40,000 nucleotides of DNA, taken from assembly GCA_964342455.1 (NCBI GenBank), contig CAYFGB010000010.1, positions 1 to 40,000 of the forward strand. Direction: 5' to 3'. The notes below the pieces were generated by a model. It was not told the DNA's origin and ran no database searches. It saw only the letters and a program-made list of their open reading frames with translations. The position numbers and the translations under genes are program-made. Source of the stretch: an uncultured Hyphomonadaceae bacterium. GTDB taxonomy: Bacteria > Pseudomonadota > Alphaproteobacteria > Caulobacterales > Hyphomonadaceae. Numbering within the stretch: position 1 is the stretch's first letter; each line of letters opens with the position of its first letter. This document shows positions 624 through 17,443 of the stretch, in pieces.

Positions 624-657
624 CCTCACCCCAACCCCCTCCTTGGAAAGGAGGGGG
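623..657. repeat. right inverted repeat flanking the DUF559 gene; its hairpin is the casposon target
   Basis: ACCTCACCCCAA followed by hairpin CCCCCTCCTT-gga-AAGGAGGGGG. This is the reverse-complement partner of 239-275. Confidence 0.8.
640..653. repeat. left copy of putative target-site duplication (TCCTTGGAAAGGAG)
   Basis: The 14-bp core is identical to 12923-12936. The perfect direct repeat extends to 19 bp (635-653 = 12918-12936) if the C-run is counted. Confidence 0.7.
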
Positions 658-664
658 GGGGGGG

Positions 665-691
665 AAATACTAAGGGAAAATCCATGTACCG
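665..691. repeat. left terminal inverted repeat
   Basis: AAATACTAAGGGAAAATCCATGTACCG. The reverse complement of 12888-12914 reads AAATACTAAGGGAAAATCCGTGTACCG. Weaker similarity (8/11) continues for 11 more bp inward. Confidence 0.9.
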
Positions 692-797
692 CTTAGGTTT
701 TGAATGAGGTGCGTGCCATTATGGCGGACATCACTTCAACCACTTTTGCGATACTTTATTCAAGTTTCGCTGACTGTGTCAGCGCCATAAAACGGGA

Positions 798-1109
798 TTA
801 CAACTCAGGCTCACCTTTCGACATTTCATAGCTCTCACGAAATTCTCTTTGAGCATTCTCAAGTCGGTTTTTCACATCATTGAAGCGCTCGACGATACTG
901 TCCCTGTCCAAGGGAGGGGGAGGAAGGTTACTCGGCGTCAACTCTGGAGCTGGTGGCCTCATCTCAAGTTGGCGCTCCAATTCCTCTTTCTCCATTTTAG
1001 TTGCGATGTCCGGCTCTCTGTCCCTGTTATCAGTCGCGATATCAGGAGCGGTCGCATCATTAAATGCTCCACCATCGCCAGAAAGTGCGTCACCAGAATG
1101 ATCAGACAT
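798..1109 (-). CDS. hypothetical acidic, proline-rich protein (last gene of cargo operon)
   Basis: 103-aa ORF. AAGGAG lies 7 nt upstream of the ATG at 1109, and the ORF starts 12 nt after the stop of the upstream ATPase gene. No motif recognised. Confidence 0.5.
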   Translation of the reverse strand: MSDHSGDALSGDGGAFNDATAPDIATDNRDREPDIATKMEKEELERQLEMRPPAPELTPSNLPPPPLDRDSIVERFNDVKNRLENAQREFRESYEMSKGEPEL

Positions 1110-1121
1110 GAGTTTTCTCCT

Positions 1122-2651: not shown

Positions 2652-3139
2652 CGTTGTCCTCCATGGCGATCTGTTGAACGGCCAATTGGAATTCTATCGT
2701 CCGGCAATATCCTTTTCTTTGGCGTGACATTGATGAGTGGAGGACGTTTCACACGAGGCTGTTCAGCATTTGACCGGCCAGCTTCCTTTCCTCCTCGTCC
2801 GAGTTCCCGCAGTCCATCAATCCAGCTATGGTACTGGGGCCGACCTATGAAGGAGATTGTTGCCCACGTAACCGACCAACCGAAACCTGCGCAAAGGACC
2901 GTACCCACCCACGGCCATAGAATGGGCATCAGGTTAGGGCCAATAAGAGAACCGCTAACCAACCCAATGACCGGACCGAAGAACCACCCAAACAGCTTAA
3001 ATGGACTTGATATCATGCTGTCCATAGTCAGCGAAATGGCGAAGAATGTTCCGACCAAGATGGTAGGGAGAGCTGCGATACGCAGCCCCCACAAAACTGC
3101 ATCAGCAAAAGTGACACCTGAATTTACGTCGAATTCCAT
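2648..3139 (-). CDS. small polytopic membrane protein with basic C-terminal tail (possible detached TM anchor of the coupling protein)
   Basis: Three hydrophobic segments: LRIAALPTILVGTFFAISL, FGWFFGPVIGLVSGSLIG and MPILWPWVGTVLCAGFGWSVTWATISFIG. I prefer the ATG at 3139, with GGAG 7 nt upstream, over the GTG at 3145. There is a 4-nt overlap with the ATPase gene. Confidence 0.6.
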   Translation of the reverse strand: MEFDVNSGVTFADAVLWGLRIAALPTILVGTFFAISLTMDSMISSPFKLFGWFFGPVIGLVSGSLIGPNLMPILWPWVGTVLCAGFGWSVTWATISFIGRPQYHSWIDGLRELGRGGKEAGRSNAEQPRVKRPPLINVTPKKRILPDDRIPIGRSTDRHGGQR

Positions 3140-3151
3140 AATCACGCTCCG

Positions 3152-3832
3152 CTAAAAGAGGTTCTTGATGGAAATATCGTCTGGATGGACACCAGCAGCC
3201 ACGAAGTACGTCCGGTAAGCAGCCTCAAGATTATCCAACTGCCCGATGCTCATTGCGCCTTCATCAGAGACCGGAATCCCAAGGCCAACGAGCGATACAG
3301 AACACCCCTTCAGATACTCTCGCGCTGGTGTTGCGAACTGCTTTTCGCCACTCAGAACATCCATAAGGTTGGTCTCCCGTCCGGTTTCCAGCCCATCTGT
3401 CAGCAAAATGACGGTGCTACCCGGCGAACACTGGATAGGGGCCGTTTGCAGAGCAAAAAAGATCGAGGTTTCGGAGACGGTGAACTTCTCATTTGGAATG
3501 CCCGCAATATATTCGGCCACACCACCCGCGAGCTTGGACACACGGAGTTTCCGACCTGTTGTCCAAGATTTGGGATTGAGAATATCCCAATTCCGATCTC
3601 CGATGTGCTGGAGATAAATTGTATCACCAAGCAACGCACTGTTTGCCAAAAGGCTTGAAACCGACGCAGCTGCACGTTGCGCGTACGCTTCATTCTGCAC
3701 CAATGGAACACTTCCCGTCACATCAAGGAAGACGTAGTGGTTTGCCGGGGTCGAACGACGATCCGTCGCATTTGCCAAACCCGATGTAGCGAGTGCAAGA
3801 CCGAGGCAAAGCATCACAAAAATATTCTTCAT
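3152..3832 (-). CDS. secreted protein with VWA-like (MIDAS-variant) motifs
   Basis: Start set at MKNIFVMLCLGLALATSGLANA, a signal peptide, with an AAGGA RBS and 2 nt after the upstream stop codon (3837-3839). FLDVTGSV (DxTxS), ETSIFF and ILLTDGLET follow the order of VWA metal-site motifs. The fold assignment is tentative. Confidence 0.55.
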   Translation of the reverse strand: MKNIFVMLCLGLALATSGLANATDRRSTPANHYVFLDVTGSVPLVQNEAYAQRAAASVSSLLANSALLGDTIYLQHIGDRNWDILNPKSWTTGRKLRVSKLAGGVAEYIAGIPNEKFTVSETSIFFALQTAPIQCSPGSTVILLTDGLETGRETNLMDVLSGEKQFATPAREYLKGCSVSLVGLGIPVSDEGAMSIGQLDNLEAAYRTYFVAAGVHPDDISIKNLF

Positions 3833-3836
3833 AGTT

Positions 3837-4838
3837 TTAGTCCTTCTTATTGCTGTAAAGGTCGAGGGGATATGCGCCGTGCTCAGCAGCATGGGCCAAT
3901 GTCGGGCGATCCAATGCGCGAAACCGGCGACACAGATTTTCCAGAGCACTGAAGCTGACCGCTTTCAGTCCTTTGTCGGTTGGGAGTATGGCATCGCCTG
4001 TATCTGCCGCGAGGCACTTCTCAGCGAGCGCCTCCTCCAGAGCGCTTGCGAGTGGTTCAATGGCCTCCGAAACAACACTGCCCGTGTCGTCGAAACTCCA
4101 TTCTGGCAAAAGTTGCTCGCGGGCTGTCTGGAGATGATTGAGCTTGCTGGCCGTTTCTCGTGCTTCGCGCAAAACCGCACGTCCTTCAGCGAGTTTAGGC
4201 CAGTCCTCCCAAGCTCGCCGAGCGAGACCAAGCATCAACGAGATCATTGAAGACACCAGCGCGAAGCTTAACAGCGGAAAGCCGAACAAAGTCAGGCTAA
4301 ACCAGCCGGCTCCAATCTGAGCCGCCAATTCCGCAAGAGACTTATCGAACCATCCGTCACCCTCTTCTGGCGCTGTCGCCAGACCGAGACCAAGATCAGT
4401 CGGCTCATTTGCAGCGATCAATCCGTCCGCGATATATGGACCCAGACTTGCGGCGATAAGCCCGCCCAAACCCAGCAATGTCCCGATAACGAACAGCCGC
4501 ATAAGATTCGCGACAATAACCGAGGATTGTTTGTTGGCTTCATGCAGAAATGCATGCGCAGCAATGAAGGCAAAAAATGCAAGGCTGGCAGCGACGACCA
4601 TTCCGAGAGGATTGGATGAGTCATCAACGCCCAATACTGGCGGGAAAGCCGCTTCAAAGGCTGCTAAAATCAGTTTGGCATCCACCATAGTGACGCACGC
4701 AATTGCACCGCACAGAAAGAGGGCTGCTGCAGCTCTAACTGGAGCAAAGCGACCAGCCTTTTGGAGGTCGTATGCAAATTGCTCGATGCATGCCTGAGCG
4801 GCCAGAAGAATGGCTGGTTCTTTGGTGTTGAACTCCAT
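3837..4838 (-). CDS. polytopic membrane protein, function unknown
   Basis: 333-aa ORF with at least 4 hydrophobic helices and a C-terminal helical soluble region. The GGAGG RBS is embedded in the end of the upstream gene. Confidence 0.55.
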   Translation of the reverse strand: MEFNTKEPAILLAAQACIEQFAYDLQKAGRFAPVRAAAALFLCGAIACVTMVDAKLILAAFEAAFPPVLGVDDSSNPLGMVVAASLAFFAFIAAHAFLHEANKQSSVIVANLMRLFVIGTLLGLGGLIAASLGPYIADGLIAANEPTDLGLGLATAPEEGDGWFDKSLAELAAQIGAGWFSLTLFGFPLLSFALVSSMISLMLGLARRAWEDWPKLAEGRAVLREARETASKLNHLQTAREQLLPEWSFDDTGSVVSEAIEPLASALEEALAEKCLAADTGDAILPTDKGLKAVSFSALENLCRRFRALDRPTLAHAAEHGAYPLDLYSNKKD

Positions 4839-4840
4839 GG

Positions 4841-5209
4841 CTACACCTCCCGACCTGCGCGCGCACGCTCGCGGATACGGTCCAGAAAGCCTTTTTCAGG
4901 GTTCACCTGCGTCAATCCATAGAGCATACGGATGCGATGATGGGCGTCTTCGATCTCGGCATCGATTATAGCCACTTGATGCGCTCGCAGTCGGCGGGCC
5001 TCATCATGGAGGCGTGATATCAATCCCGCAGGCGGGATCGTCAGTTTTTCTACGCTGGCGGACAGCTTGTGTTTCAATGCCTCAAATTGCGAATTGTCTG
5101 CATCAATCGGTGCCCAAGCATTCTCTGCCGAACTCTTTTGTGCCGATGATGAATTCGTCTGAGCGAAATCCTCTTCAAACGAGCCAAACCCCTTCATGTC
5201 GTCGGGCAT
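4841..5209 (-). CDS. hypothetical protein (first gene of cargo operon)
   Basis: I prefer the ATG at 5209 (GGGGAG 8 nt upstream) over the GTG at 5218. The C-terminal half looks helical or coiled-coil. No motif recognised. Confidence 0.45.
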   Translation of the reverse strand: MPDDMKGFGSFEEDFAQTNSSSAQKSSAENAWAPIDADNSQFEALKHKLSASVEKLTIPPAGLISRLHDEARRLRAHQVAIIDAEIEDAHHRIRMLYGLTQVNPEKGFLDRIRERARAGREV

Positions 5210-5468
5210 AAGCCGCACTCCCCTGTTCGGGCCCGCGTCAAGCGGTCCGTTGTTGCCGTTTCAATGGGATAATTCCCAGTCACAAGAGAGGTGGGGATTG
5301 TCGAATCTTGGACGCACAAGCGGCCTGATCTGTCACTATCGGTATTACAGCCTGCCCAGTTACGTGAGCTGCGTAATGGGGCGATCCTTCTCCCGACAAA
5401 AGACGTTCATGACCTGCCTCACCTCTGAAAGCAGAGTGTGCACATCATTAGGTATCCTGTCAAGTTTT

Positions 5469-5494
5469 AGATATCCAATTGTATTTGGATATCT
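5469..5494. promoter_or_regulatory. inverted repeat AGATATCCAA-ttgtat-TTGGATATCT (candidate operator)
   Basis: Perfect 10-bp arms. A half-site AGATATCCAAA recurs at 6347-6357, upstream of the 261-aa gene. Confidence 0.45.
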
Positions 5495-6278
5495 AATTAT
5501 GGACTCGACCGGCTAGTTTTTGATTGGAAGGTGTTGGATTAATTCCGACTTCAGCCAGCAAGTCCTGAGGTACTTGATAGCCTTTGCGGATTGCTGCCAG
5601 AAAAAGCTCTCTGGTCATCCATTCGGTTCTGTTGCCGCCTGCTTCTCGGTCTGCAATTGAATTAAATAATTCGATGACTCGTGCATCAACTTTGAAAGAC
5701 AGGTTCTTTTTCCGTACATTTCGGTGATGTTCGGGAGGCAAGTCAGGACATGGAAGCTCCTGTCTCTTTCGCACTCTTCGCTGCGGCTTCTGGCTCTGCA
5801 AGCTATTAGTGATCTGATCGTACAATATTAAATGGTAATAATTTGAATCAATATCCCCCAATAAATTTACATACTTGTCGCTAATCGCAAGAAAGTCTTG
5901 AATATCGTAGAATTCTTCAGAGCGATAACTATCAATAGAATGCGCTAAATCTTGCATTATATCTGCTGATATTCTTTCAAGTGATTTAGTCTGCAAAACT
6001 AACGGCCAAATCTCATCCAAAATCACGGGAGGTTGTCGTCCCTGAATGAGTTCACCGGTTACGGTTTTTTGAAAGTCAGCAGGAATTCGCGACAAAACTT
6101 CGTCGGATAGTTGCCAAATATATGCTTGAAATTCTATTTTGGTGCGAAGCCGACGTTTTCGAAAACCTGAGCGGTCCACCTCTTCGAAACTTCTTTCAGC
6201 AATATCCAGATGTCGCTGATATCTGTCTTCGCCACTGATGGAATCCTCAGATTGAGTAAAGTCAGTTATATTGTCCAT
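5493..6278 (-). CDS. hypothetical protein with C-terminal ribbon-helix-helix-like segment
   Basis: 261-aa ORF with a GGAGAAG RBS and visibly AT-richer codon usage than its neighbours. KNLSFKVDARVIELFNSIADREAGGNRTEWMTRELFLAAIRKG has a strand-helix-helix layout like CopG/Arc-type repressors. The RHH call is tentative. Confidence 0.5.
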   Translation of the reverse strand: MDNITDFTQSEDSISGEDRYQRHLDIAERSFEEVDRSGFRKRRLRTKIEFQAYIWQLSDEVLSRIPADFQKTVTGELIQGRQPPVILDEIWPLVLQTKSLERISADIMQDLAHSIDSYRSEEFYDIQDFLAISDKYVNLLGDIDSNYYHLILYDQITNSLQSQKPQRRVRKRQELPCPDLPPEHHRNVRKKNLSFKVDARVIELFNSIADREAGGNRTEWMTRELFLAAIRKGYQVPQDLLAEVGINPTPSNQKLAGRVHN

Positions 6279-6346
6279 GATGTTGTGCTTCTCCAGTCCT
6301 GAAGCTTCGATTCGAGGCTTTAGTCAGCATATACACAATTATTAAT

Positions 6347-6357
6347 AGATATCCAAA
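6347..6357. promoter_or_regulatory. AGATATCCAAA half-site upstream of the 261-aa gene
   Basis: Same 10-mer as the arms of the 5469-5494 inverted repeat. It lies about 70 bp upstream of the start at 6278. Confidence 0.35.
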
Positions 6358-6619
6358 CGAGACTGTGTGCATAGGTGGTTTCACTCGTCTTTTAGGTGCA
6401 TGACAGCGCCGAAAGTAGCCACCGTTGATCTGGCTACATCAAGTTTAGTTCTTCAGTCGCGCTGAAAAGGCGCCGCGGATGCCTCAGGGGCTCCGCGGAC
6501 AATTGCTTGATGGTCATAGCTCTCAGTTGATCACATCAGCTGTCCGACGAGCGCGCTTTGATCTGCGCACCGGGTTCGCATCGCGCAAGATCGGCTTGGT
6601 GGTTTAATCAACTTCAACA

Positions 6620-6892
6620 CTATGCCGATTTATAAAAGCTGTCTGGCTTCTGTTCCTGTTTGGGCGGGGCATCCAGATGAACGGCAGCCCTCAGAAGAGC
6701 TTCCCTTTGATCGGGCCAAATTTTTTGCAATTCATTAAACGCGGCGAGGCGAGCTATTTGAATGTCTCTAGGGTTTCGAGGGCGTTTGGTCTTGTGGTCA
6801 TAGCTCTCGGTAAGTCTGAGCTGTTGTCTGACCAGCTCCCTTCCGTCTGCGTAGACCGGGCCATACGCATTGCTGCTATTCGATTTAGCCAT
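6620..6892 (-). CDS. hypothetical small protein
   Basis: I prefer the start MAKSNSS at 6892 (GGAGGGA RBS 6 nt upstream) over the ORF-track start at 6940. No motif recognised. Confidence 0.4.
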   Translation of the reverse strand: MAKSNSSNAYGPVYADGRELVRQQLRLTESYDHKTKRPRNPRDIQIARLAAFNELQKIWPDQREALLRAAVHLDAPPKQEQKPDSFYKSA

Positions 6893-6995
6893 ATCACTTC
6901 CCTCCGAAACTATGCGGACATATCCACTCCATTGCTGCACTTAGAAAAAAGTGCTCCTCGAAATCTCAATCGTCAAGGGAAAAAAGGCCGTGTTA

Positions 6996-7012
6996 AATAT
7001 CATAATGATATT
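6996..7012. promoter_or_regulatory. 17-bp palindrome AATATCATAATGATATT (candidate operator, copy 1)
   Basis: Perfect palindrome around a central base. Its reverse complement is identical to copy 2 at 7069-7085. Confidence 0.5.
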
Positions 7013-7068
7013 AATGGTGCAAATAAGGTGTAATATTCACTAACGTTTGACGCCCGTAAGTTCTTATA

Positions 7069-7085
7069 AATATCATTATGATATT
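7069..7085. promoter_or_regulatory. 17-bp palindrome AATATCATTATGATATT (candidate operator, copy 2)
   Basis: Same site as 6996-7012, with centres 73 bp apart. It lies in the spacer between the cas1 stop and the 90-aa gene. Confidence 0.5.
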
Positions 7086-7258
7086 TAATAACTTTCAATG
7101 GTCACGAAGGTGGAGTTTTCGGTAGGGGCTATATCTGTCAGATGAGGTGAGTATTGAGCGCTCAAATTCAGGCACGAAGCCTTAGATTGCGCAAGCAAAC
7201 TATGAGAGCTTATTCCCAGATATGTAAAAGAACCAACTCAATGGGTGGCAGCAGCTTG

Positions 7259-8314
7259 CTACAATTGGCCAGAACACAGACAGGCCCCAACTGATAAAAT
7301 GGCCGCCAGCTTCGCCGACAGCCTGCACATTCCATCTTGTCGGATGTAAAAGTCTTTCACTGTGAACCGTTCATTCAGTGCAAACTCCAACACAGCCTTA
7401 TCGACTTCAGGCCTATGTGGTTCAATGAGGTCCAACACATAGGAAGGGCGCTCTTCATAATTGCCATGAAAGATGCCGAAGTTCGGATCGTATCCGTGCG
7501 CCACCACGTCTAGTCGAATTTGAGATTCCAGAACCGCATAGCCATAGTTCAACATGGCATTGATGGGGTGATCCGCCTTTCGGTTACGCGCATTCTTACC
7601 TGCAATATTGGATGACCGTTTTGAATAGCTGAGCCATGGCGTTGGAACAGGATGTTGATTAATGCCCTTCCACCTCAACTCCAATCCGTTCCAGACATCG
7701 AAGTACCGTGCGGCAGCAACGCCTTCGATGCCCCGCAAGGCATCGACGCTGTCGGCTTCTCCATTTGCAATCTTGTGAAGGCCTTTCTCGGCCCAGATTT
7801 CCGCTTCGCGCCTCACCTCTGACGGCGGAAAAATTTCCCGTAATGTCACAAGGCTCGCTTCGAGCTTTCGTCTCACCAAAGCAGCACAAAAATCGAGACG
7901 TTTTTTCGGGTCATTTCGAATGGCAATTTGTTCCTGTAGTCTGACTGCGCAGATTGCGCCTTTTGATCCTCCGACAATGGCGCTGACTTTTCCCTTATAG
8001 GAGAGGTTCAAAAGCACCACGTCTTGAGCTTCCAGCCAGTCCAAAACAGCAAGCGTAATTGCGCCGGATGTTTCGATAAAAATGATGCGTTCTGGAATAG
8101 CCATTTCACCGGGATAAAACCGCCAGAACTTTTTCTCCTCGCTCGCATAGCTGCGCCCATTCTCAATTTCGAGTGCACCATTTCTGATGCGCAATTGGAC
8201 GCCATGTCCCGTCAAAATCAGTGGGTGCTTTCTTCGATGTCTGGCAAGCGTTTTAGGTTCCAGTTTTTCCGCTTTATTTTCCCAATACGCACAGCGCGAA
8301 TCCCAAGTGTCCAT
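7259..8314 (-). CDS. cas1: Cas1-family integrase (solo Cas1, casposase-like)
   Basis: 351 aa. The N-terminal beta domain is LILTGHGVQLRIRNGALEI...IIFIETSGAITLAVLDWLEAQDVVLLNL. The helical catalytic domain has LRGIEGVAAARYF (Glu), KADHPINAMLNYGYAVL (His) and GYDPNFGIFHG.....SYVLDLIEPHRPEVD (acidic residue). Order and spacing are typical of Cas1 (PF01867-type). Confidence 0.9.
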   Translation of the reverse strand: MDTWDSRCAYWENKAEKLEPKTLARHRRKHPLILTGHGVQLRIRNGALEIENGRSYASEEKKFWRFYPGEMAIPERIIFIETSGAITLAVLDWLEAQDVVLLNLSYKGKVSAIVGGSKGAICAVRLQEQIAIRNDPKKRLDFCAALVRRKLEASLVTLREIFPPSEVRREAEIWAEKGLHKIANGEADSVDALRGIEGVAAARYFDVWNGLELRWKGINQHPVPTPWLSYSKRSSNIAGKNARNRKADHPINAMLNYGYAVLESQIRLDVVAHGYDPNFGIFHGNYEERPSYVLDLIEPHRPEVDKAVLEFALNERFTVKDFYIRQDGMCRLSAKLAAILSVGACLCSGQL

Positions 8315-8571
8315 TTTCGACTCATTTTCTAGATGATTTATTCCTCAAGAAAATCATAGCAAAAATGTAGCCGAAAACTTAGAGAAAACGAGTTCCTTAT
8401 TGGAATAAAATGCACCAATAATTTATTTATGTTTTTTATGTCAAATTAATTCTCAGTATCTAATCTCAAAAAATGAACTCTATATTTACTGTATACATAC
8501 TATTGGCGCTAATTTTGCATGAATTTTCTCGGTAGTCCCGATACGGGACAGTTCAGAGATGAGTTTCGACC
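8315..8571. promoter_or_regulatory. AT-rich divergent control region between cas1 and the HTH-HNH-polB operon
   Basis: 257 bp, much more AT-rich than the surrounding DNA. It contains the inverted repeat ATGATTT-N11-AAATCAT (8333-8357) about 19 bp upstream of the cas1 start. It also contains hairpin GTCCCG-ata-CGGGAC (8535-8549) 22 bp upstream of the HTH gene start. No promoter hexamers are called. Confidence 0.5.
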
Positions 8572-9084
8572 ATGCCAAGGAAAACGAGTAAGAAGCGGTA
8601 TCGCTGGACGCGAAGCAAAGCGAATGAGCGCTTCGCTGCACTGCCAACGGAACGCAGGAGAGCCTATAGACTTGCTTTTCTGAGTGTGAAGAAAGGCGCG
8701 AGCATTACTAAAGCAGCTAGAGACTTTCACGTGGACCGTGAGAACCTCTCCTCATACGTCATAGCGAATTCACGGTTCAGGAGGAAGAAGGGTGGAAAGC
8801 TCAAAATCCTTCAGGATAAGCGTGTCGTGCCAAGAAGCGTTGTCACCACTGGCGGCTTGCTTCGACTCTCCATGAGTGCCGACCAAATCGAGAAAATCAG
8901 CGCACACAATCGCGATGTCGAACGCGAACGGCAGAACAAACAAGTTGGTGTTTTGGCGAAATGGGAAGGTGAGCAGGTCAGAGACACCGATGGTAATCGG
9001 TATGATTTGCTCTTTTCCAGAGAGGAATTGTTTGAAGTTCTACCGCCTAATGAAGCGCGGGATGACAATTACGACGAGGCGTAA
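8572..9084 (+). CDS. helix-turn-helix DNA-binding protein
   Basis: 170 aa. GASITKAARDFHVDRENLSSYV looks like a classical HTH. The gene ends 1 nt before the HNH gene start. Confidence 0.6.
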   Translation: MPRKTSKKRYRWTRSKANERFAALPTERRRAYRLAFLSVKKGASITKAARDFHVDRENLSSYVIANSRFRRKKGGKLKILQDKRVVPRSVVTTGGLLRLSMSADQIEKISAHNRDVERERQNKQVGVLAKWEGEQVRDTDGNRYDLLFSREELFEVLPPNEARDDNYDEA

Positions 9085-9085
9085 C

Positions 9086-9922
9086 ATGTCAGGGTTTCAA
9101 ACAGCAAAAGAAACGCACAAGCGCGCCACGCAGTCAGCACGGCGCGAACGCCAGCTTAAAATGCGGGGTCATGCTTGCTACATGTGCGGTGTTGAAGACC
9201 CCGAACTTCTGAAACTCGTCTATCTCGATGAGAAGAACATGTGGGACAAGTCGGAGGCTGTGCTGTGTCGTAACCACCGCCAGCTTCTTACCGTTTATCA
9301 AAACGCGGAAAAACTGCCTCAAGGGTTCCGACCCAACAGCAATGTAACCGTTTTCGATGCGCTATACATGGAAGCCAGCTTCGCTGACATGAACCGCCAA
9401 TCCTCCCTCAATAATCATAAGCAGTTTGCTGCTGAACATGTTGACCAAACGCTTCAACTTTCAAATCTGATTGAAGACCATTCGATACTCAAAAAGCGCC
9501 TGAAGAAGGCGATGAAGAAAGACCCATTTGGAACTCACGCAGATTGTTATTGTGCGATTTGCCATGAAGTGAGGCCAATGGTTCTGGAAGCTCATCATGT
9601 GGACAGGGAGGGGCTATCCGAGCGAGCCATTATTCTCTGTCATAACCATCATGACCTTGTCTCAATTGAGCAAAGATATCACCCCGACAAAGACGCGCTC
9701 CTATCGCTTGCGGATGACTATCGCGATTTTGTTGCTCAACGCCTTGGGATGGATGTTCTCGAAAAATTAGCTGCAATGCAGAAAGAGGCGACATCCAAAG
9801 TTCTATTCGATGATGCCATTCTGATGGCAAAAATTCACCAACTCGCAAATTCGCCGGATGCCGAGCTATCTGCAGAAGAATTTGAGGAAATGCTGGTTCC
9901 GGGTGTGGTAAAATGGAGCTGA
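9086..9922 (+). CDS. HNH endonuclease-domain protein (two Cys/His modules)
   Basis: Start moved to MSGFQT at 9086, because the ORF-track extension 8876-9085 overlaps the HTH gene. Module 1 is CYMCG...LCRNHRQL. Module 2 is CAICHEV..LEAHHVD......LCHNHHDLV. The stop overlaps the polB ATG by 10 nt. Confidence 0.75.
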   Translation: MSGFQTAKETHKRATQSARRERQLKMRGHACYMCGVEDPELLKLVYLDEKNMWDKSEAVLCRNHRQLLTVYQNAEKLPQGFRPNSNVTVFDALYMEASFADMNRQSSLNNHKQFAAEHVDQTLQLSNLIEDHSILKKRLKKAMKKDPFGTHADCYCAICHEVRPMVLEAHHVDREGLSERAIILCHNHHDLVSIEQRYHPDKDALLSLADDYRDFVAQRLGMDVLEKLAAMQKEATSKVLFDDAILMAKIHQLANSPDAELSAEEFEEMLVPGVVKWS

Positions 9923-12867
9923 AGCTTCGCGCCTTCGTAACACCTGAGAAAGGATTTAAGGGCTCGCGGCGAAAGCCATTTCCCAGACATCGCAGTGGAC
10001 GGACACTAACTTTCGATTGCGAAACACGCACAGACGCATCACAGCGTTTGCGGTTCGGAGCATATCGCATTGATGACGAGCCAGATGAGAATGGTGAAAC
10101 ACTCGTCTCCGAGGGCTTGTTTTACGATGAAGGCGGACTGGAAGACGGTGAGCTCGAAACACTGAAAGAGTATGCCCATTCTGAAGGTTTGCCGATTCTC
10201 AGCTATCAAGAATTCAGTGAAGAGATATTGCTCAGCCAATGTTACGAGCTGTCAGGCACAATAATCGGCTTCAACCTACCATTCGATTTGTCGCGCCTAG
10301 CCGTCAATGCATCCCCTTCCCGTAGATACAAGAACGATGACCGTTTTGAGAACGGCATTACGCTTCATCTTTTGCCCAATCAAAAGTATCGCGGAAAAGT
10401 TCGCGTTGGTCATGTAAACGCCAATCGGTCACATCTCTCATTCTACAAGGAGTTTGACTCCTACTATTTCGGCAACTTCATCGACGTGAAGACGCTCGGC
10501 ACTTCGTTGTTGTCCGGCACGTCCAGCCTTGCATCGGTTGCGAAGGCACTCGGAGTTTCGCATGAAAAAATGGAGACAGACGAGCACGGCAAGACGCTCA
10601 CGCGGGATTATATCGAATACGCCCGAAACGATGTGACCTGCACGTGGGAGTGCTATTGCGAACTGCTCACGCGACTAGGCACCCATGCGTTTGACGATTT
10701 AGACGATATGCAGGTCAACAGCGAAGCAAGCATAGGAAAAGCGTATCTTCGAGACTTCGGCATTCTGCCTTGGCGACAAGTCCAACCGAATTTTCCGCCT
10801 GAAATCACCGGCAAGATTATGAGTAGCTATTTCGGCGGTCGGACAGAAGTTCGTATTCGCCGGGACATCCGCGAAGTGTTCTATGCAGATTTCCTGTCCA
10901 TGTACCCAACGGTAAATGCGCTCATGGGGTTGTGGAAGTTCGTCATTGCGGAAGGCGTGGACTATGACGAGAGCGAAGACGCGAAATCTTGGACGACGGA
11001 GTTTCTTGAAAACGTCACCGGGGGAGATTTTCAATGCCAAGAGATTTGGCGAGACCTGCCGACGCTGGTTCAAGTTAAGCCTGATGATGACGTCCTTCCC
11101 ATTCGGGCTGATTTCGCAGATTCAGGCACAACCAATATCGGCATTAATCACCTGACATCTGACGCGCCGCTTTGGTTCACGCTCGCCGATTGCGTCGTGT
11201 CCAAACTGTTGACGGGCAAAACTCCGAAAGTTGAACGCGCAATTCGGTTCAGCCCAAAGTTACCTCAACATGGCCTGAAAACGAAAACACTACTGGGTCA
11301 AACGGACGGCGTGATTGACCCCTATAGTGACGACTTTTTCAAACGATTGATTGAAGAGCGCGCCAAACTGAAGGCGGCGAAGAACTCAGCGGCAGGTGAA
11401 GAAAAAGCCCGTCTGAAAATTGCAGAGAAAACCGTCAAGATTATTGCTAATGCGGCAAGCTACGGGCTCTTCATTGAGTTGAACCCGAAAGACTATCCAG
11501 AACCTCAAAGCGCTATTCGTTATGGGTTTGAGGTTGAGCCGCACGCGTTCGAAACCAAGACACTTGAGATACCCGGAGAGTATTTCCACCCACTTTTGGC
11601 AACCTGCATAACAGGTGCGGCTAGGCTCATGCTGGCGCTGGCTGAATGGCGCGCTGCGCAGCACAAAATAAACTGGACGTTCTGTGACACAGACGGACTG
11701 GCACTCGCAAAGCCAGACCATATGGAAAGAGCGGATTTTCTCACCAAATGTCGTGATGTTCTCGATTGGTTTAAACCGCTCAATCCATATGACGGGCAAG
11801 CTGGAATTTCTGTCCTTGAGCCCGAGGAAGAGAACTTCCACCCTGATTACGAAGTTGAAAAATCCAATCCTGATTGGACGCAGCTCCAACCTCTTTATTG
11901 CTATGCTGTTTCAGCGAAACGCTATGTCCTGTTCAACGAAATTGATGGCGACATCAATATCAGAAAATCTTCAGCTCACGGACTTGGCTATTGGGCGACA
12001 CCCTTTGGGGAGTTTGATGAAACTGCTGGTGAGTGGGAATGGCGCTTGGCACTTTGGGAGCACATCATCAAAGCTGCCAGAGAAGACAAAGATGATGAAA
12101 TCGACCTCTCGAAAGACGACCGCTTCAATCTAGCTGCAGCCGGACAATCAACCATTACGCGTTGGGATCAATTCCAATGGTATGCCCGATACAATGCGCA
12201 ACAAGCCACAGGCCATGGCCCGATTGATGATTATCGAAACGGTATTCAGCCGTTCAATTTCTTCCTTCGATTTCTGAACAAAGCTCATGACCGTGTTGAT
12301 GACACGAATCCAGATGTCGAAATCTGGCGTGCAATTGTTGGCCGGGAGCCAAAGCTTGCAGCGCCGTTCGATAAAGACTTGGGAACTGCAGCCTCACAAC
12401 TTTTCGACATTGAAGCCCAAACGAACGACGCGACAGAGGCGATTGATTTTTCGCCTTGGCTTCGGTCCTTCAGCGATAGGTTTTCCGACTATAATCTCCA
12501 TCGCGAAAACAAGTTCGCCGATTGTCAGGTCCACACAAAAGGACTTCTTCAGAGAAGGCACGTTCAAGCGAGCGGATTTGCGCACATCGGTAAGGAAAGC
12601 CATGATTGGGACGAAACACTTGTCCCGTGGGCCAATGAAAGCGGCGGAATTAGTTTCGGAACGTCCAATCTCGACACAGCATCAAAGCGGGACATCATCT
12701 TGAACGCATTGAGCAAAGGAACGTGCAGCTCAAATCAGCTTGTTCGGATGACGGGCGTTTCCAAAACCACGATGAGCCACTTGAAGCAGGGCAAACCTAT
12801 TCCACTGTCCAGCCTAGCGAAACTCCATGACGCGGTGATGTCGTTGCTGCACGCCGAAACGGTCTAG
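9913..12867 (+). CDS. polB: family B DNA polymerase with 3'-5' exonuclease domain and C-terminal HTH
   Basis: ExoI is FDCET (D at 10015). ExoII is GFNLPFDLSRL (N at 10273). ExoIII is YARNDV (Y at 10618). Motif A is YADFLSMYPT (D at 10888). Motif B is KIIANAASYGLF (11437-11472). Motif C is FCDTDGLAL (DTD at 11687-11695). A KxY motif, SAKRYVL, is also present. The C-terminal segment NQLVRMTGVSKTTMSHLKQGKPIPLSSL looks like an XRE-type HTH. Confidence 0.9.
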   Translation: MELKLRAFVTPEKGFKGSRRKPFPRHRSGRTLTFDCETRTDASQRLRFGAYRIDDEPDENGETLVSEGLFYDEGGLEDGELETLKEYAHSEGLPILSYQEFSEEILLSQCYELSGTIIGFNLPFDLSRLAVNASPSRRYKNDDRFENGITLHLLPNQKYRGKVRVGHVNANRSHLSFYKEFDSYYFGNFIDVKTLGTSLLSGTSSLASVAKALGVSHEKMETDEHGKTLTRDYIEYARNDVTCTWECYCELLTRLGTHAFDDLDDMQVNSEASIGKAYLRDFGILPWRQVQPNFPPEITGKIMSSYFGGRTEVRIRRDIREVFYADFLSMYPTVNALMGLWKFVIAEGVDYDESEDAKSWTTEFLENVTGGDFQCQEIWRDLPTLVQVKPDDDVLPIRADFADSGTTNIGINHLTSDAPLWFTLADCVVSKLLTGKTPKVERAIRFSPKLPQHGLKTKTLLGQTDGVIDPYSDDFFKRLIEERAKLKAAKNSAAGEEKARLKIAEKTVKIIANAASYGLFIELNPKDYPEPQSAIRYGFEVEPHAFETKTLEIPGEYFHPLLATCITGAARLMLALAEWRAAQHKINWTFCDTDGLALAKPDHMERADFLTKCRDVLDWFKPLNPYDGQAGISVLEPEEENFHPDYEVEKSNPDWTQLQPLYCYAVSAKRYVLFNEIDGDINIRKSSAHGLGYWATPFGEFDETAGEWEWRLALWEHIIKAAREDKDDEIDLSKDDRFNLAAAGQSTITRWDQFQWYARYNAQQATGHGPIDDYRNGIQPFNFFLRFLNKAHDRVDDTNPDVEIWRAIVGREPKLAAPFDKDLGTAASQLFDIEAQTNDATEAIDFSPWLRSFSDRFSDYNLHRENKFADCQVHTKGLLQRRHVQASGFAHIGKESHDWDETLVPWANESGGISFGTSNLDTASKRDIILNALSKGTCSSNQLVRMTGVSKTTMSHLKQGKPIPLSSLAKLHDAVMSLLHAETV

Positions 12868-12887
12868 CTTTCTAGCCAACACCCAAC

Positions 12888-12914
12888 CGGTACACGGATT
12901 TTCCCTTAGTATTT
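12888..12914. repeat. right terminal inverted repeat
   Basis: CGGTACACGGATTTTCCCTTAGTATTT, the reverse complement of 665-691 with one mismatch. It begins 20 nt after the polB stop. Confidence 0.9.
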
Positions 12915-12922
12915 ACCCCCCC

Positions 12923-12936
12923 TCCTTGGAAAGGAG
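12923..12936. repeat. right copy of putative target-site duplication (TCCTTGGAAAGGAG)
   Basis: Identical to 640-653. It sits inside a third copy of the host hairpin (12916-12943) that lacks the ACCTCACCCC part of the DUF559 flank. Confidence 0.7.
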
Positions 12937-12958
12937 AGGGAGGCGCTGAACTTTAACG

Positions 12959-13204
12959 TCAATCCTCTTCACCCAACGCCGCAAGTTTCGCCTGAACGCG
13001 GCCCCGGTTTTTCGTTGCGATAGCAACATATTGGCTAGCGCCCGCCGCTTCAAAAACCTCAAGCGCCGCGTCAGTACACGCAATCGAGCGCTGATAATTG
13101 TCTCTTTGGTTCTCGCCCTTGTCGCCCATCGTTTCGTAAAGTACTGCCAGATTTGCCTGCGCCGTGCCTGAAACTATCCCGCTCCTGCCGTTTTCATGCC
13201 GCAT
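12959..13204 (-). CDS. small TPR-like protein or fragment
   Basis: 81-aa ORF. ANLAVLYETMGDKGENQRDNYQRSIACTDAALEVFEAAGASQYV resembles the terminal repeats of TPR proteins. It may be a remnant. Confidence 0.35.
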   Translation of the reverse strand: MRHENGRSGIVSGTAQANLAVLYETMGDKGENQRDNYQRSIACTDAALEVFEAAGASQYVAIATKNRGRVQAKLAALGEED

Positions 13205-13302: not shown

Positions 13303-13821
13303 TTGATGGAAGCGGTCAGCGACGACAAAGGCTCAATCTACGAACAATTGGTGCGGTTCACCCGGACGCACGCCCCACCACAGACAGCCACGCGGCGAAG
13401 CCGGGTCCGGCCCGCCAGCCGTATGGAAATGTATATTGCGGCGGGAATGCTGGCGCTGCCCATCATACTGATCATTCTGAACGGTCTGATCGCGGGCGAT
13501 TCCTTTATTGGTGACATTCTGAATTTTGGCCTGATGGGCGTTTTTCTGGTCGGCATTGTCTACGCCCTGTCCGTGGCCGGATCGATGATCCTGTCGAAAC
13601 GCGGCAGTCCGCCTGCCGTCAAATGGGTCGCCGCTGTCGTGCTGGAACAGGATACGCGGTTCGATGAGGGCATTCCGGTCGATTATGTTGTGCTCGAGCT
13701 TGAAGACGGAAGGCGGGTGACCCTGAAAACGGATAGCGATACCTCCGACAGGGCTCAGATGGGTACGATTGGCTGGGCCAATATCGAAAAGTCCACACTC
13801 GTCCGTTTCGTGGCTGAGTGA
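13303..13821 (+). CDS. membrane protein, function unknown
   Basis: 172 aa with two hydrophobic helices followed by a soluble C-terminal domain. Its stop overlaps the GTG of the next ORF. The antisense ORF 13333-13836 is judged a shadow ORF. Confidence 0.5.
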   Translation: MMEAVSDDKGSIYEQLVRFTRTHAPPQTATRRSRVRPASRMEMYIAAGMLALPIILIILNGLIAGDSFIGDILNFGLMGVFLVGIVYALSVAGSMILSKRGSPPAVKWVAAVVLEQDTRFDEGIPVDYVVLELEDGRRVTLKTDSDTSDRAQMGTIGWANIEKSTLVRFVAE

Positions 13822-13826
13822 GCGGT

Positions 13827-14492
13827 ATGAGAACACGGGTCAAAGTCTGCTGTATTTCGTCAGAGGATGAAGCGCGCCATGCGATCCGCGCCGGCGTTGA
13901 TGCTGTGGGTCTCGTCGGTCGCATGCCGTCTGGCCCAGGCCCGATTTCCGACAAGAAAATCGCCGAGATTGCCCGCGCCATTCCGCCAGCCGTCAGCTGT
14001 TTTCTGCTGACCTCGGAAACCACGGCGTCCGGCATTGCCGAGCATTTGCTGCGGACGGGCGTTTCCACCATTCAGCTGGTTCAGCATCTCTCGATCGCGG
14101 AAACCATGGCGCTCGACCGGGTGCTGCTGTCAACGCGGCGTGTGCAGGTCATCCACATGGAAGACGAAAGCGCGCTCGATCTGATCGATAAGTATGAGCC
14201 CTATGTGCATGCCTTCCTGCTCGACTCCGGGCGTCCGTCGGCTGACACACCGGAACTGGGCGGTACGGGCCGCACACATGACTGGGAATTATCGCGCCGG
14301 TTTGTCGAGAAATCGAAAAAGCCCGTTTTCCTGGCCGGTGGGCTGACCCCGGAAAACATTCAGGACGCGATTCTCAAGGTCCGGCCATTTGGTGTGGATG
14401 TCTGTACAGGCGTGCGAAATCAGGGCCATCTGGACCCGAAACGCCTCGAAGCCTTCATGAGCGCGGTGCGGATGGCGGACCGGCATCGCTAG
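13827..14492 (+). CDS. trpF: phosphoribosylanthranilate isomerase-like protein
   Basis: RVKVCCISSEDEA (compare KICGIT), ELGGTGRTHDW, VFLAGGLTPENI and FGVDVCTGV follow TrpF (PRAI) motif order. The start could be the GTG at 13818 or the ATG at 13827. Confidence 0.7.
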   Translation: MRTRVKVCCISSEDEARHAIRAGVDAVGLVGRMPSGPGPISDKKIAEIARAIPPAVSCFLLTSETTASGIAEHLLRTGVSTIQLVQHLSIAETMALDRVLLSTRRVQVIHMEDESALDLIDKYEPYVHAFLLDSGRPSADTPELGGTGRTHDWELSRRFVEKSKKPVFLAGGLTPENIQDAILKVRPFGVDVCTGVRNQGHLDPKRLEAFMSAVRMADRHR

Positions 14493-14501
14493 CCTGTCCG
14501 G

Positions 14502-15437
14502 TCAGATGCCTGCCCGATCCAGTAGCCGCTTGAACGCGGCCCAGAATTGTTCGCGAATGTCATCTGTTTCCATCAGGATCTCGTGACGGGAGTGTTCAAT
14601 GAAGATCCGCTCCACATTTGTCAGATGTCGTGAGACGCGATGATGGCTGTCATTATCCACCAGGGCTTCCTCGCCCGCTGTCGCGATCATCACCGGGCAG
14701 GTGACATGCTCCAGCGCACCGGGTTTGGCAAACCGGTCAATCACATCAAGCGAAGCCGAAAGCCAGTTCCATGTGATGGGGCCGAGTTCCAGTTGAGGTG
14801 AGGCCTCAATCAGCTGTTCGTTGATCTCCCAGCGCTCGCGGCTATGCGTGACGAAGTTTTCCTCGAATGTGGTTCGCGGGGTCGGCTTGACGGCAAACAT
14901 ATTCCCCCGTCCAAGCGTGCGCATGGCCCAGGCAAGGTATTTCATGCCCATGAACCGGTCCTTCAGCCCCCACATGGGCGCAGAAAATGCGGCGGCTTCC
15001 ACCTTCACCATTTGCTGCGTGATAGCCGCCAGCGCAATCGCTCCGCCCATGGAATGGGCCAGCGCGACGTGAGGCCTTGGAAGCGTTTCGTTTTGTTCGT
15101 CCAGCGCCTTGCTCAACGCATTCATGAAGGTCGAGAAATTGTCGATATGGCCTTTCAGGGCATCTGGCAGCAGCCTGTCTGACAGGCCCTGGCCTGGCCA
15201 GTCCAGAATGAGGACAGCAAAGCCCATATCCTGCAATTCGCGCCCGACCTCGAAATATTTCTCAATATATTCCGTGCGTCCCGGACAGACGATAACGGTG
15301 CCGCGCGCTGCTTTGCCTGCAATGCCTGGCGCAACACACATACGGAGACGTCGGCCCTTGGCGCCGCGCAGCCATCTGACCTGCGCGCCAACGGGTGGTG
15401 GGTTGCCCTCAATTTCTACGAAATGATCTGAGGACAA
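14502..15437 (-). CDS. alpha/beta hydrolase (lysophospholipase-like)
   Basis: 311 aa with the nucleophile elbow AHSMGG and an HG-type oxyanion region (VIVCPGRTEY). Confidence 0.75.
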   Translation of the reverse strand: MSSDHFVEIEGNPPPVGAQVRWLRGAKGRRLRMCVAPGIAGKAARGTVIVCPGRTEYIEKYFEVGRELQDMGFAVLILDWPGQGLSDRLLPDALKGHIDNFSTFMNALSKALDEQNETLPRPHVALAHSMGGAIALAAITQQMVKVEAAAFSAPMWGLKDRFMGMKYLAWAMRTLGRGNMFAVKPTPRTTFEENFVTHSRERWEINEQLIEASPQLELGPITWNWLSASLDVIDRFAKPGALEHVTCPVMIATAGEEALVDNDSHHRVSRHLTNVERIFIEHSRHEILMETDDIREQFWAAFKRLLDRAGI

Positions 15438-15454
15438 ATGTCCACCTCTTGAAT

Positions 15455-15757
15455 TTATTTGAGTTTCGACAGGATGCTCTGAAGTTGCATGACAACAGAC
15501 ATGTCGCCTTCGACCTTCAGTTTACCCTGCATAAAGGCCATTGTGGGGTCCAGCTCGCCCTTGGCCAGTTTCTTGAAGTCTTCCCAGGCGACGCGGATTG
15601 TCGCGTCCGACGGCGCGTCAGCGTCATTATTGGCGATGTTCTTCGCGCCATCGAGAAAGAGCGTTCCGAAGTCACCGAAATCGAATTTTACGGTCTTGTC
15701 AAAGTCCGATCCGGAAAGGGCTGCCTGCGCCTGCGCAGTGAGTTCGGCCAGATCCAT
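15455..15757 (-). CDS. SCP2 sterol-binding-domain protein
   Basis: Start set at MDLAELTA (GGGAGA RBS). The C-terminal DPTMAFMQGKLKVEGDMSVVMQLQSIL is the typical SCP2 ending. Confidence 0.75.
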   Translation of the reverse strand: MDLAELTAQAQAALSGSDFDKTVKFDFGDFGTLFLDGAKNIANNDADAPSDATIRVAWEDFKKLAKGELDPTMAFMQGKLKVEGDMSVVMQLQSILSKLK

Positions 15758-15895
15758 CTTGCTGTCTCCCTTGACGAATTTTCGAAACTCTATGGACGGC
15801 TCGCATGGCGAAAGCAAGTCACCCTGCGTCAATAAGAAAAAACACTGTTCATCGGAAAATGTCTCGATAGTCTGCTATCCTCAAGGGAGGCCCGA

Positions 15896-17443
15896 ATGAG
15901 CTGGAAATCGCACATAGACGAGTTACGCACGCGACAGAGACTTGCTGAAAAAATGGGGGGTGAGGAGCCTGTTGCGCGTCAGAGGTCCCGCGGCAAGCTG
16001 ACGGTGAGAGAGCGCGTTGCTTTTCTGGCCGATCCAGGAAGCTTTCAGGAGATTGGCAAGATTGCGGGCCGCGCCACATATAGTGCCGATGAGGAGATGG
16101 AAGATTTCCTGCCGGGCAATATGGTGGTTGGTCGGGGTCGCGTCGGTGGCCGAAGCTGTGTGATTATTGGCGATGATTTCACGGTTCGCGGCGGGGCGGC
16201 GGATGCCACAATCCGGGGGAAATTCCTGATCGCCGAGCAGATGGCCGGTGAATACCGTATGCCGCTGGTTCGCCTTGTTGATGGAACGGGCGGCGGCGGT
16301 TCGGTGAAGATGTTTGAAAAGGACCCCCGTACCTATATTCCCGAAACGCCCGGCTGGGATCATGTCGTGGAGAACATGTCCGAAGTGCCGGTGGTTTCAC
16401 TTGCGCTCGGGCCGTGCGCCGGTCTGGGCGCGGGGCGCGTCGGCGCGTCTCATTATTCGGTGATGGTCAAGGAGATGTCCCAGGTGTTTGTCGCCGGGCC
16501 ACCGGTTGCGCGCGCCATTGGCGAGGACGTGACCAAGGAAGAGCTGGGCGGCTGGAACATCCAGGCCAAGAATGGCACTGTGGATGAAGCGGTTGAGACC
16601 GAGGCCGAAGCGTTCGGAAAGGTCAGGCAGTTTCTCTCCTATCTGCCTTCCTCCGTGCACGAACGAGCTGAGCGCACGGCGCCGACGGACGATCCGAACC
16701 GCCGTGAAGAAAGCCTCATCGAGATTGTGCCCACGGATGGGAAAACACCTTATATGCCGCGCAAGATCATCAATGCCTGTGTGGATCGTGACAGCTTCTT
16801 CGAGATCGGGCGCTATTGGGGCAAATCGCTTGTCACCGGCTTTGCGCGGATTGATGGCTTTCCGGTCGGTATTATGGCGGGCGATCCGTTCTTTCTGGAT
16901 GGCGCATGGACGGCCGACACGTGTGACAAGGTTACCCGGCATGTCGATCTCTGTGATCTGTTCCATTTGCCGATCATTCATTTCGTTGACTGCCCGGGCT
17001 TTGCCGTCGGCGTGAAGCACGAAACCGCAGGTGTGACCCGGCGCGGCGTTCGGGCCATGTCAGCGGTTTATCAGGCCAATGTGCCCACCTGCGCCGTGGT
17101 GATCCGTAAGGCCTATGGCCTGGCCGGCTCGGCAATGATGAACCCGTCGAAAACCAAATGGCGGTATTGCTGGCCTTCGGGTGACTGGGGCTCTCTGCCC
17201 ATGGCTGGGGGTATCGAAGCGGCCTATCGCAAGGAACTGGCTGAGGCCGAAAACCCGGACGAGCTTCTGGCGCAGCTCTATAAGAAGTTTGACGCCATCA
17301 AATCACCCTTCCGGACGGCTGAAGCCTTCCTGGCAGAGGACATTATCGATCCGAGAGACACGCGGCCTCTGCTTGTCGACTTTGTGCATCATGCAGACCG
17401 GGTGATTGATGCAGGTCGCAAACCAAAAGGGTATCGGCCGTAA
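15896..17443 (+). CDS. acyl-CoA carboxylase carboxyltransferase (beta) subunit
   Basis: 515 aa. It has the N-terminal GKLTVRERVAFLADPGSFQEIG, then DFTVRGGA, and a second CoA-carboxyltransferase half (GFPVGIMAGDP...). Substrate specificity cannot be determined. Confidence 0.85.
   Translation: MSWKSHIDELRTRQRLAEKMGGEEPVARQRSRGKLTVRERVAFLADPGSFQEIGKIAGRATYSADEEMEDFLPGNMVVGRGRVGGRSCVIIGDDFTVRGGAADATIRGKFLIAEQMAGEYRMPLVRLVDGTGGGGSVKMFEKDPRTYIPETPGWDHVVENMSEVPVVSLALGPCAGLGAGRVGASHYSVMVKEMSQVFVAGPPVARAIGEDVTKEELGGWNIQAKNGTVDEAVETEAEAFGKVRQFLSYLPSSVHERAERTAPTDDPNRREESLIEIVPTDGKTPYMPRKIINACVDRDSFFEIGRYWGKSLVTGFARIDGFPVGIMAGDPFFLDGAWTADTCDKVTRHVDLCDLFHLPIIHFVDCPGFAVGVKHETAGVTRRGVRAMSAVYQANVPTCAVVIRKAYGLAGSAMMNPSKTKWRYCWPSGDWGSLPMAGGIEAAYRKELAEAENPDELLAQLYKKFDAIKSPFRTAEAFLAEDIIDPRDTRPLLVDFVHHADRVIDAGRKPKGYRP

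Follow-up and report, generated by a model that had tools for sequence, protein, structure and literature searches.

The stretch of DNA analysed here, 40,000 nucleotides of an uncultured Hyphomonadaceae bacterium (assembly GCA_964342455.1, contig CAYFGB010000010.1, positions 1 to 40,000; the window in what follows), carries a mobile element whose polB gene is the subject of this report. The element, at 654-12921, is a casposon of about 12.3 kb, one of the self-replicating transposons driven by Cas1, and polB (9913-12867, plus strand) encodes a family B DNA polymerase (PolB) of 984 residues that ends in a domain of helix-turn-helix (HTH) type. The adaptation machinery of CRISPR is proposed to descend from casposons, to which the window adds one clean, apparently intact bacterial representative with defined ends. 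We argue below that the polymerase probably replicates this element, most likely from 3'-OH primers, and that its HTH domain would hold it at the terminal inverted repeats (TIRs).

The element and its relatives

The TIRs are about 49 nt long and 88% identical as detected, with arms that start at 654 and 12877. The left TIR (654-702, plus strand) consists of a G-run followed by AAATACTAAGGG and then by an inner box, TCCATGTACCG, at 681-691; the right TIR (12877-12921, minus strand) has its inner box, TCCGTGTACCG, at 12888-12898 and is conserved in the closest relative, L080. Outside the TIRs stand the two copies of a 15-bp target-site duplication (TSD), CTCCTTGGAAAGGAG, read from the sequence at 639-653, within a GC-rich hairpin, and at 12922-12936. 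The insertion site is thus an intergenic GC-rich hairpin, and the G+C content of the element is 0.46-0.51, compared with 0.55-0.60 for most of the sequence to its right.

Inside these ends, cas1 (7259-8314, minus strand) encodes a casposase of 351 residues without extra domains (Pfam Cas_Cas1, E=7.8e-36, residues 34-335). It lies 1.6 kb upstream of polB and is divergent from an operon that runs from orf170 through a gene for an HNH-like nuclease to polB. The small core protein encoded by orf170 (8572-9084, plus strand) contains an HTH-like stretch, TKAARDFHVDRENLSSY, and has a syntenic counterpart of 173 residues in L080, a 36% tblastn match in a second related locus, L001, and a weak hhalign match (E=0.055) to the second HTH of those PolBs that have two; a Pfam scan gave no match for it. 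The HNH-like gene (9086-9922, plus strand), whose start was inferred from the 278-residue gene of L080, encodes 278 residues with two CxxC...H-N-H type motifs in the translation, and its end is overlapped by the start of polB by 10 nt. The products of the HNH-like gene and orf170 have no match in Pfam, NCBIfam or PADLOC, and both genes occupy positions syntenic with published casposon cores (PMC4046053), a synteny on which the nuclease label rests. Cas1, the TIRs and the 15-bp TSD together identify the element as a casposon. An earlier first-pass annotation, made from the sequence alone, had rightly called the polymerase element-encoded, but it had overlooked cas1 and with it the identity of the element. 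Within the casposons it is a family 3 (bacterial) member, apparently intact and with defined ends, a placement suggested by the similarity of its polymerase to bacterial casposon PolBs, and it is an undescribed member of this known family.

Relatives of polB occur in 403 species genomes, mostly of Alphaproteobacteria, in a scan of one genome per species, from which 79 of the 403 stretches, all from bacterial genomes, were kept as related loci (numbered with the prefix L). The family is therefore large, with more than 3000 proteins. Of the 79 loci, 72 have a Cas1 at a distance of 2-4 kb upstream of polB, with 31-53% identity to the window Cas1 by tblastn; in six of the other seven the upstream sequence is shorter than 1.5 kb, and the seventh (L063) has 8.7 kb with no Cas1 match. 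An origin from a phage, a plasmid or another virus was considered and rejected, PolB relatives being absent from INPHARED, PLSDB and IMG/VR.

The closest relative, L080, is a Tara Oceans contig whose PolB is 91% identical to that of the window and which shares the core from cas1 to polB at 91% DNA identity, the similarity beginning at window position 7316. In this contig the right TIR is followed by 16 bp (CTCTGCTACGGTGGAG) and then by a left TIR, an arrangement located at 735-830 and 12507-12602; its first 1178 nt are identical to 11773-12950, and host flank is absent. From the TIR-TIR junction and the terminal identity it follows that L080 was assembled as a circle of about 11.8 kb or as a head-to-tail tandem.

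Many homologues of about 40% identity span the whole length of the polymerase. That of Henriciella marina DSM 19595 (P0024) shares 41% identity across 92% of its length (E=5.8e-202), and its gene adjoins genes for Cas1, a methylase and an SF1 helicase. The same strain hosts the published family 3 casposons HenMar-C1 and HenMar-C2 (PMC4046053, PMC4779613). Like the window element, these casposons (Krupovic et al., 2014, 2016) have a Cas1 free of extra domains and divergent from genes for HTH-like, HNH-like and PolB proteins, TIRs, a TSD of about 15 bp and an intergenic insertion in an alphaproteobacterial-type chromosome. They differ in cargo, which comprises a methylase, a helicase and a lanthipeptide synthetase rather than the distant TraG/VirD4-like ATPase and the uncharacterised membrane and other proteins of the window element, and also in the position of polB, which abuts the right TIR in the window.

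This last arrangement appears to carry little meaning. With the last base of the polB stop at 12867 and the right TIR detectable from an inner edge at 12877, the gap is 9 nt and not the 20 nt given in the first-pass annotation, which had also presented the closeness of the two as a feature. It is incidental: 13 relatives have TIRs defined by their G-run signature, and in these the distance from the polB stop to the right TIR is 1.3-6.8 kb; the gap is short here because all cargo lies on the other side. In the minimal 6.2-kb casposon L037 the TIR begins 2 nt past the polB stop, but abutment as a rule of the family was rejected, since a scan of 61 loci for inverted-repeat arms no more than 200 nt from the stop yielded L037 alone.

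The polymerase and its catalytic motifs

With more than 3211 homologues at E<=1e-3 and a top E-value of 0, the polB product, which starts at an ATG, does not stem from a chance open reading frame (ORF). Two family alignments, of 23 sequences (A1) and 112 sequences (A2), were used, and invariance is given below for A2, where nearly invariant means at least 90%. All exonuclease and polymerase motifs that had been named in the first-pass annotation are present and conserved in A2, and they line up in both alignments, which removes the misalignment that the annotation had raised as a risk. The exonuclease motifs (10012-10632; these and the following motifs are on the plus strand) are ExoI FDCET (residues 34-38, with D35 and E37 nearly invariant), ExoII NLPFD (residues 121-125, with N121, L122 and D125 invariant) and ExoIII YARND (residues 236-240, with Y236 and D240 invariant). 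Motif A, DFLSMYPT (residues 326-333, 10888-10911), aligns with archaeal DFRSLYPS in hmmsearch against the PDB, and its D326, F327, S329, M330 and Y331 are invariant. It is followed by motif B of the fingers, KIIANAASYG (residues 509-518, 11437-11466; K509, Y517 and G518 invariant), by motif C, FCDTDG (residues 590-595, 11680-11697), in which both catalytic Asp residues are retained and C591 to D594 are invariant, and by the KxY motif, KRY (residues 669-671, 11917-11925), which is invariant throughout (K669 to Y671).

The predicted structure agrees with this assignment. The AlphaFold model built on A2 has a mean pLDDT of 90.6 over the polymerase and a pTM of 0.90, and Foldseek matches it with probability 1.00 and E of about 1e-13 to the PolBs of phi29, archaea (Tgo/9N/KOD), pol alpha and ASFV. 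A phmmer search of the polymerase against the PDB returned zero matches, archaeal fingers being reached by the family profile only. Judged by its complete motif set and its model, the ORF encodes the replicative, proofreading family B polymerase of the casposon. Motif C reads CDTDG here and CDTDS in the family consensus, and by this signature and its casposon context the enzyme belongs to the PolB_CDTDS cluster, which is linked to the main PolB and protein-primed groups and includes the casposon enzyme of A. boonei (Kazlauskas et al., 2020; PMC7544198).

Assignment to the piPolBs of pipolins was considered and rejected. These are likewise PolBs encoded by self-synthesizing bacterial mobile elements and have insertions at the TPR positions, but they are recognised by a motif C of the TTD type, with Thr for the first Asp, and by KTRG instead of KxY (PMC5695915). 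The window polymerase keeps CDTDG and KRY in place of TTDG and KTRG, and in the window element Cas1 and TIRs replace the tyrosine integrase and the att repeats.

The C-terminal HTH domain

The C-terminal domain, about the last 65 residues (922-983; 12676-12861, plus strand), is of the XRE type by profile, AlphaFold and Foldseek alike, and it encloses the segment at 12720-12840 in which such an HTH had first been suspected. A linker of lower confidence (residues ~900-920) joins it to the polymerase body. Pfam HTH_26 matches residues 938-973 (E=2e-4) with 22.0 bits, which equals the gathering score; in other members HTH_19, HTH_3, HTH_26 and HTH_31 match with E-values down to 3.5e-8, partly by way of a second HTH. 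Searched against the PDB, a tail profile of 32 members matches HTH domains of the XRE and LacI types (E=1.7e-5 and 3.3e-5). The predicted tail helices span residues 922-934, 940-947, 951-958 and 965-983, with a pLDDT of 84-93 over residues 920-960 in the full model and of about 90 in a separate model of the tail. Top Foldseek matches of the tail are HipB, HigA, C.Esp1396I, SinR, P2 C and the N-terminal domain of MuB, and the top 50 are mostly of the XRE family (root-mean-square deviation 1.8-2.2 A, 51-59 columns, probability up to 1.00); the small size of the domain accounts for their weak E-values (0.18-1).

The HTH tail is a family-wide trait of casposon polymerases. All 112 aligned members carry one or two C-terminal HTHs, and tail lengths are bimodal, at about 85-90 residues (one HTH, as in the window polymerase) or about 145 residues (two HTHs). 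The domain is therefore unusual among PolBs generally, as the first-pass annotation had it, but standard in this family. Nor is the fusion itself new, since a C-terminal HTH was reported on family 2 casposon PolBs by Krupovic et al. (2014; PMC4046053), who place the family 3 PolBs on a branch within family 2, and was restated in a 2023 review. The family 2 PolBs of Aciduliprofundum boonei and Methanosarcina resemble the window enzyme in their CDTD[S/G] motif, their HTH-fused C-terminus and the casposon HNH and HTH genes that accompany them. However, the casposase of family 2 carries a similar HTH whereas the window Cas1 carries none, and the likeness of the HTHs, as considered here, is one of fusion position.

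When all ORFs of the related loci were searched with hmmsearch, no Cas1 had the PolB-type HTH, which was confined to PolB and a few small proteins that stand alone. Two of the latter consist of two PolB-type HTH repeats and are encoded beside the TIR opposite polB (L002 629-982 and L039 238-714, both on the minus strand); in L002 the gene lies within an inverted duplicate, 176 nt long, of the 3' end of polB (783-958 against 12788-12963). Stand-alone HTH copies in such a position fit a module that acts at the element ends.

Architecture and priming

An N-terminal domain ahead of the exonuclease defines RNA/DNA-primed PolBs, as in the structures of Tgo, RB69 and Pol II. In the window polymerase no such domain precedes the exonuclease. 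Its ExoI is found at residue 35; the corresponding residue is 156 in the Pol II of E. coli and, as annotated, 9 in phi29. The AlphaFold model has two short strands in the first 30 residues. From the position of ExoI it follows that the N-terminal domain is absent and that no terminal protein is fused to the polymerase, the latter as the earlier reading of the sequence had also held. Motifs A and B are 183 residues apart, more than the 134 of phi29 and the 74 of E. coli Pol II, a spacing that implies an alpha/beta insertion of about 100 residues at the TPR1 position; spacing and model together place this insertion, of ~100-120 residues, between motif A and the fingers (residues ~349-470; 10957-11322, plus strand), and its likeness to TPR1 is positional. 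Right after motif B, at the TPR2 position, the model has a long beta-hairpin (residues 521-554; 11473-11574, plus strand) with strands at residues 523-537 and 544-554. Alignment with E. coli Pol II by hhalign, which has E=1.9e-4 across motifs B to C, likewise has a 31-residue insertion at residues 521-551.

In these respects the enzyme resembles the protein-primed PolBs (pPolBs) of phi29, PRD1 and the tectiviruses, His1 and the family 1 casposons, which are compact, lack the N-terminal domain, have insertions at the TPR positions and belong to TIR-bearing elements. Pfam matches in the 23 members of A1, all of them weak, are to the protein-primed profile DNA_pol_B_2 in 18 and to DNA_pol_B in 14, and the best matches among predicted viral structures are to protein-primed polymerases, those of His1 virus (E=4e-17) and a tectivirus (E=6e-17). 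The window enzyme differs from this group in having about 300 extra residues past KxY, including the HTH, and in its fingers, which are closest to those of archaeal RNA-primed PolBs. It also differs in that no terminal protein accompanies it recognisably: searches of the upstream genes with Pfam, NCBIfam and PADLOC recognised no terminal-protein homologue, terminal proteins being fast to diverge. By its model, then, the polymerase looks pPolB-like in architecture, which sits uneasily with the label "RNA-primed". Sequence, with its archaeal-like fingers, and architecture give a mixed answer on the priming mode, in line with the caution of the first-pass annotation on that point.

TIR boxes and other palindromes

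The TIRs of family 3 are bipartite: a conserved terminal box (a G-run and TATAGTGATAG or similar) is separated by about 20 variable nt from an inner box that is likewise conserved. Twelve elements (L008, L010, L011, L012, L017, L022, L025, L035, L062, L064, L071 and L076) have TIRs of the form GGGGGGTATAGTGA(T/A)AG, about 20 variable nt and an inner box TGACCA(C/T)A, while in the TIRs of the window element, L080 and L001 the G-run is followed by (A/T)A(A/T)A and the inner box is (C/T)(A/G/T)TGTACCG. Within the window, exact matches to the 11-mer TCC[A/G]TGTACCG occur only at the two TIRs. The type of box goes with the type of polymerase: all 12 elements with TGACCA(C/T)A encode two-HTH polymerases, whose second HTH has a conserved DPSNL motif, and all three with TGTACCG encode one-HTH polymerases with GVSKTT. 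Such a match would be expected of an HTH that reads the TIR, and as seen in these sequences it is an association at the level of clades.

Two other sets of palindromes lie near cas1. A near-perfect palindrome, AAATATCATnATGATATTT, is present in two copies 73 nt apart (6993-7015 and 7066-7088) between cas1 and the first cargo gene. These copies, which the first-pass annotation had put forward as targets of the polymerase HTH, were rejected as a core feature since they are absent from L080, whose cargo differs. They thus lie outside the conserved core, as part of the variable cargo module, and probably serve the cargo operon as operators. The AT-rich region between cas1 and orf170 (8315-8571, 257 nt) is 89% conserved with L080 and holds conserved palindromes; one is GTCCCGATACGGGAC at 8535-8549, just upstream of orf170, and another is an 18-nt inverted repeat in L080.

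Discussion

How does a casposon polymerase find the DNA it has to copy? We put at roughly 60% the probability that the window enzyme is the replicative PolB of a family 3 casposon, equipped with a TPR2-like hairpin and with an HTH that holds it at the TIRs, and primed by a 3'-OH. The polymerase would copy the element after Cas1 has joined the 3' ends to the staggered target, or else after excision. By analogy with TPR2 of phi29, the hairpin that follows motif B probably permits strand displacement and a processivity that does not depend on a clamp, and the flexibly linked HTH probably keeps the enzyme attached to the DNA of the casposon. Its likeliest site is the conserved subterminal TIR box, with TCC[A/G]TGTACCG as the candidate sequence, so that synthesis would start at the element ends. 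A pre-existing 3'-OH, either at the target-site nick left by integration or on a primer made by the host, would most likely serve as primer, rather than a terminal protein. Comparison within the family yields concrete targets in the subterminal TIR box, the TPR2-position hairpin and the pPolB-like architecture.

However, several points weigh against this reading. The association of box and HTH follows the clades, and shared ancestry may explain it equally well; moreover, HTH proteins of the orf170 type might bind the inner box instead. The HTH of a family 2 casposase, although essential for integration, has no detectable DNA binding as an isolated domain (PMC6977970). The insertions of the polymerase are likened to TPR1 and TPR2 by position and not by homology: the profile and structure comparison that the first-pass annotation had proposed does place insertions at both positions, but hhalign with phi29 aligned only the segment from ExoIII to motif A, at a probability of 0.8%, which is uninformative on TPR homology. 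The significant PDB matches of the family profile are to archaeal PolB fingers only (Deep Vent, E=1.4e-4; Tgo, E=9e-4), and this fits the published assignment of family 2 and family 3 PolBs to RNA-primed, PolB3-like enzymes that depend on host primase for priming (PMC4046053). Finally, we found no biochemical study of any family 2 or family 3 casposon PolB in the literature.

A further-reaching proposal is possible, if distinctly tentative. The PolB_CDTDS enzymes of families 2 and 3 might form a distinct class of pPolB-like, strand-displacing polymerases, unlike the usual archaeal-type PolBs that depend on host priming, whose HTHs read the inner box of the TIR, and the casposon might move by target-primed replicative transposition, with synthesis by its own polymerase starting at its ends from the 3'-OH generated by Cas1 integration.

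It appears unlikely that the polymerase HTH serves instead as a transcriptional autoregulator, binding operators between cas1 and orf170 and limiting expression of the core. By fold and by profile it matches repressors and antitoxins (HipB, HigA, C-proteins, SinR and LacI), XRE-type domains are typically repressors, and the conservation with L080 of the cas1-orf170 intergenic region and its palindromes keeps this explanation alive. Yet a 984-residue monomer with a single HTH provides no obvious dimer to bind a palindrome, and stand-alone HTH proteins such as the orf170 product are available for regulation. The fusion to a polymerase in thousands of homologues, often with tandem HTHs, is better explained by recruitment.

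About equally doubtful, in our judgment, is a role for the HTH as a protein-protein or assembly module that docks the polymerase on the Cas1 transpososome or on a complex of the HNH-like protein. The HTH of the M. mazei casposase is needed for integration, which its deletion abolishes, is disordered in the crystal and showed no DNA binding as an isolated domain (PMC6977970), and this gives docking some weight. The HTHs of family 2 Cas1 and PolB are similar (Krupovic et al., 2014), and the window Cas1, which has no HTH of its own, could be supplied with one by the polymerase. Against docking, clades each have a conserved recognition-helix region (GVSKTT; DPSNLRR), which shifts with the inner box of the TIR, as would that of a DNA reader, and the XRE fold is overwhelmingly DNA-binding.

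Least probable is replication primed by the HNH-like protein, the orf170 product or another casposon protein acting as terminal protein on the linear TIR ends of an excised element: the missing N-terminal domain, the insertions at TPR1 and TPR2 positions, the DNA_pol_B_2 matches, the top viral structural neighbours (His1, Tectiviridae, WheeHeim, GA-1 and ABV2), the TIRs themselves and the usual location of terminal-protein genes directly upstream of polB (PMC4046053) would all favour it, but no terminal-protein homologue was recognised by the searches described above, the upstream HNH and HTH genes are conserved among casposons with other roles proposed for them, archaeal RNA-primed PolBs score equally well by fold and by profile, the literature groups the clade with PolB3, and in the L080 contig the TIRs meet head to tail instead of forming free ends.

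Cargo and target sites

The cargo of the window element includes a TraG/VirD4-like type IV coupling-protein ATPase of 509 residues (1122-2651, minus strand; Pfam T4SS-DNA_transf, E=1e-21, and TraG-D_C, E=6e-17), which has only about 24% identity to the TraG proteins of plasmids and falls far short of the NCBIfam cut-offs. Its gene lies within a minus-strand operon (ORFs at 798-6940) beside genes for uncharacterised, apparently hydrophobic proteins, and it is present in none of the 79 related loci. No casposon known in 2016 encoded functions able to mediate intercellular transfer (Krupovic et al., 2016). A PADLOC scan of the cargo for defence systems gave zero matches. Genes for peptide natural products are a recurrent kind of cargo in casposons: lasso-peptide-like genes (Asn_synthase and Transglut_core3) are present in L080 at 1258-3415, and the casposon region of H. 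marina (L083) encodes a lanthipeptide synthetase of the RamC/LanC type at 13616-16177.

GC-rich hairpins that end in a G-run are found in or beside several insertions, at 635-664 and 12916-12943 in the window, at 4818-4859 in L022 and at 6056-6076 in L010. Their recurrence suggests that the preferred target of these casposons is a REP-like or terminator-like palindrome. In the window, the host flank has a third GC-rich hairpin of similar kind, at 238-261, which is 400 nt distant.

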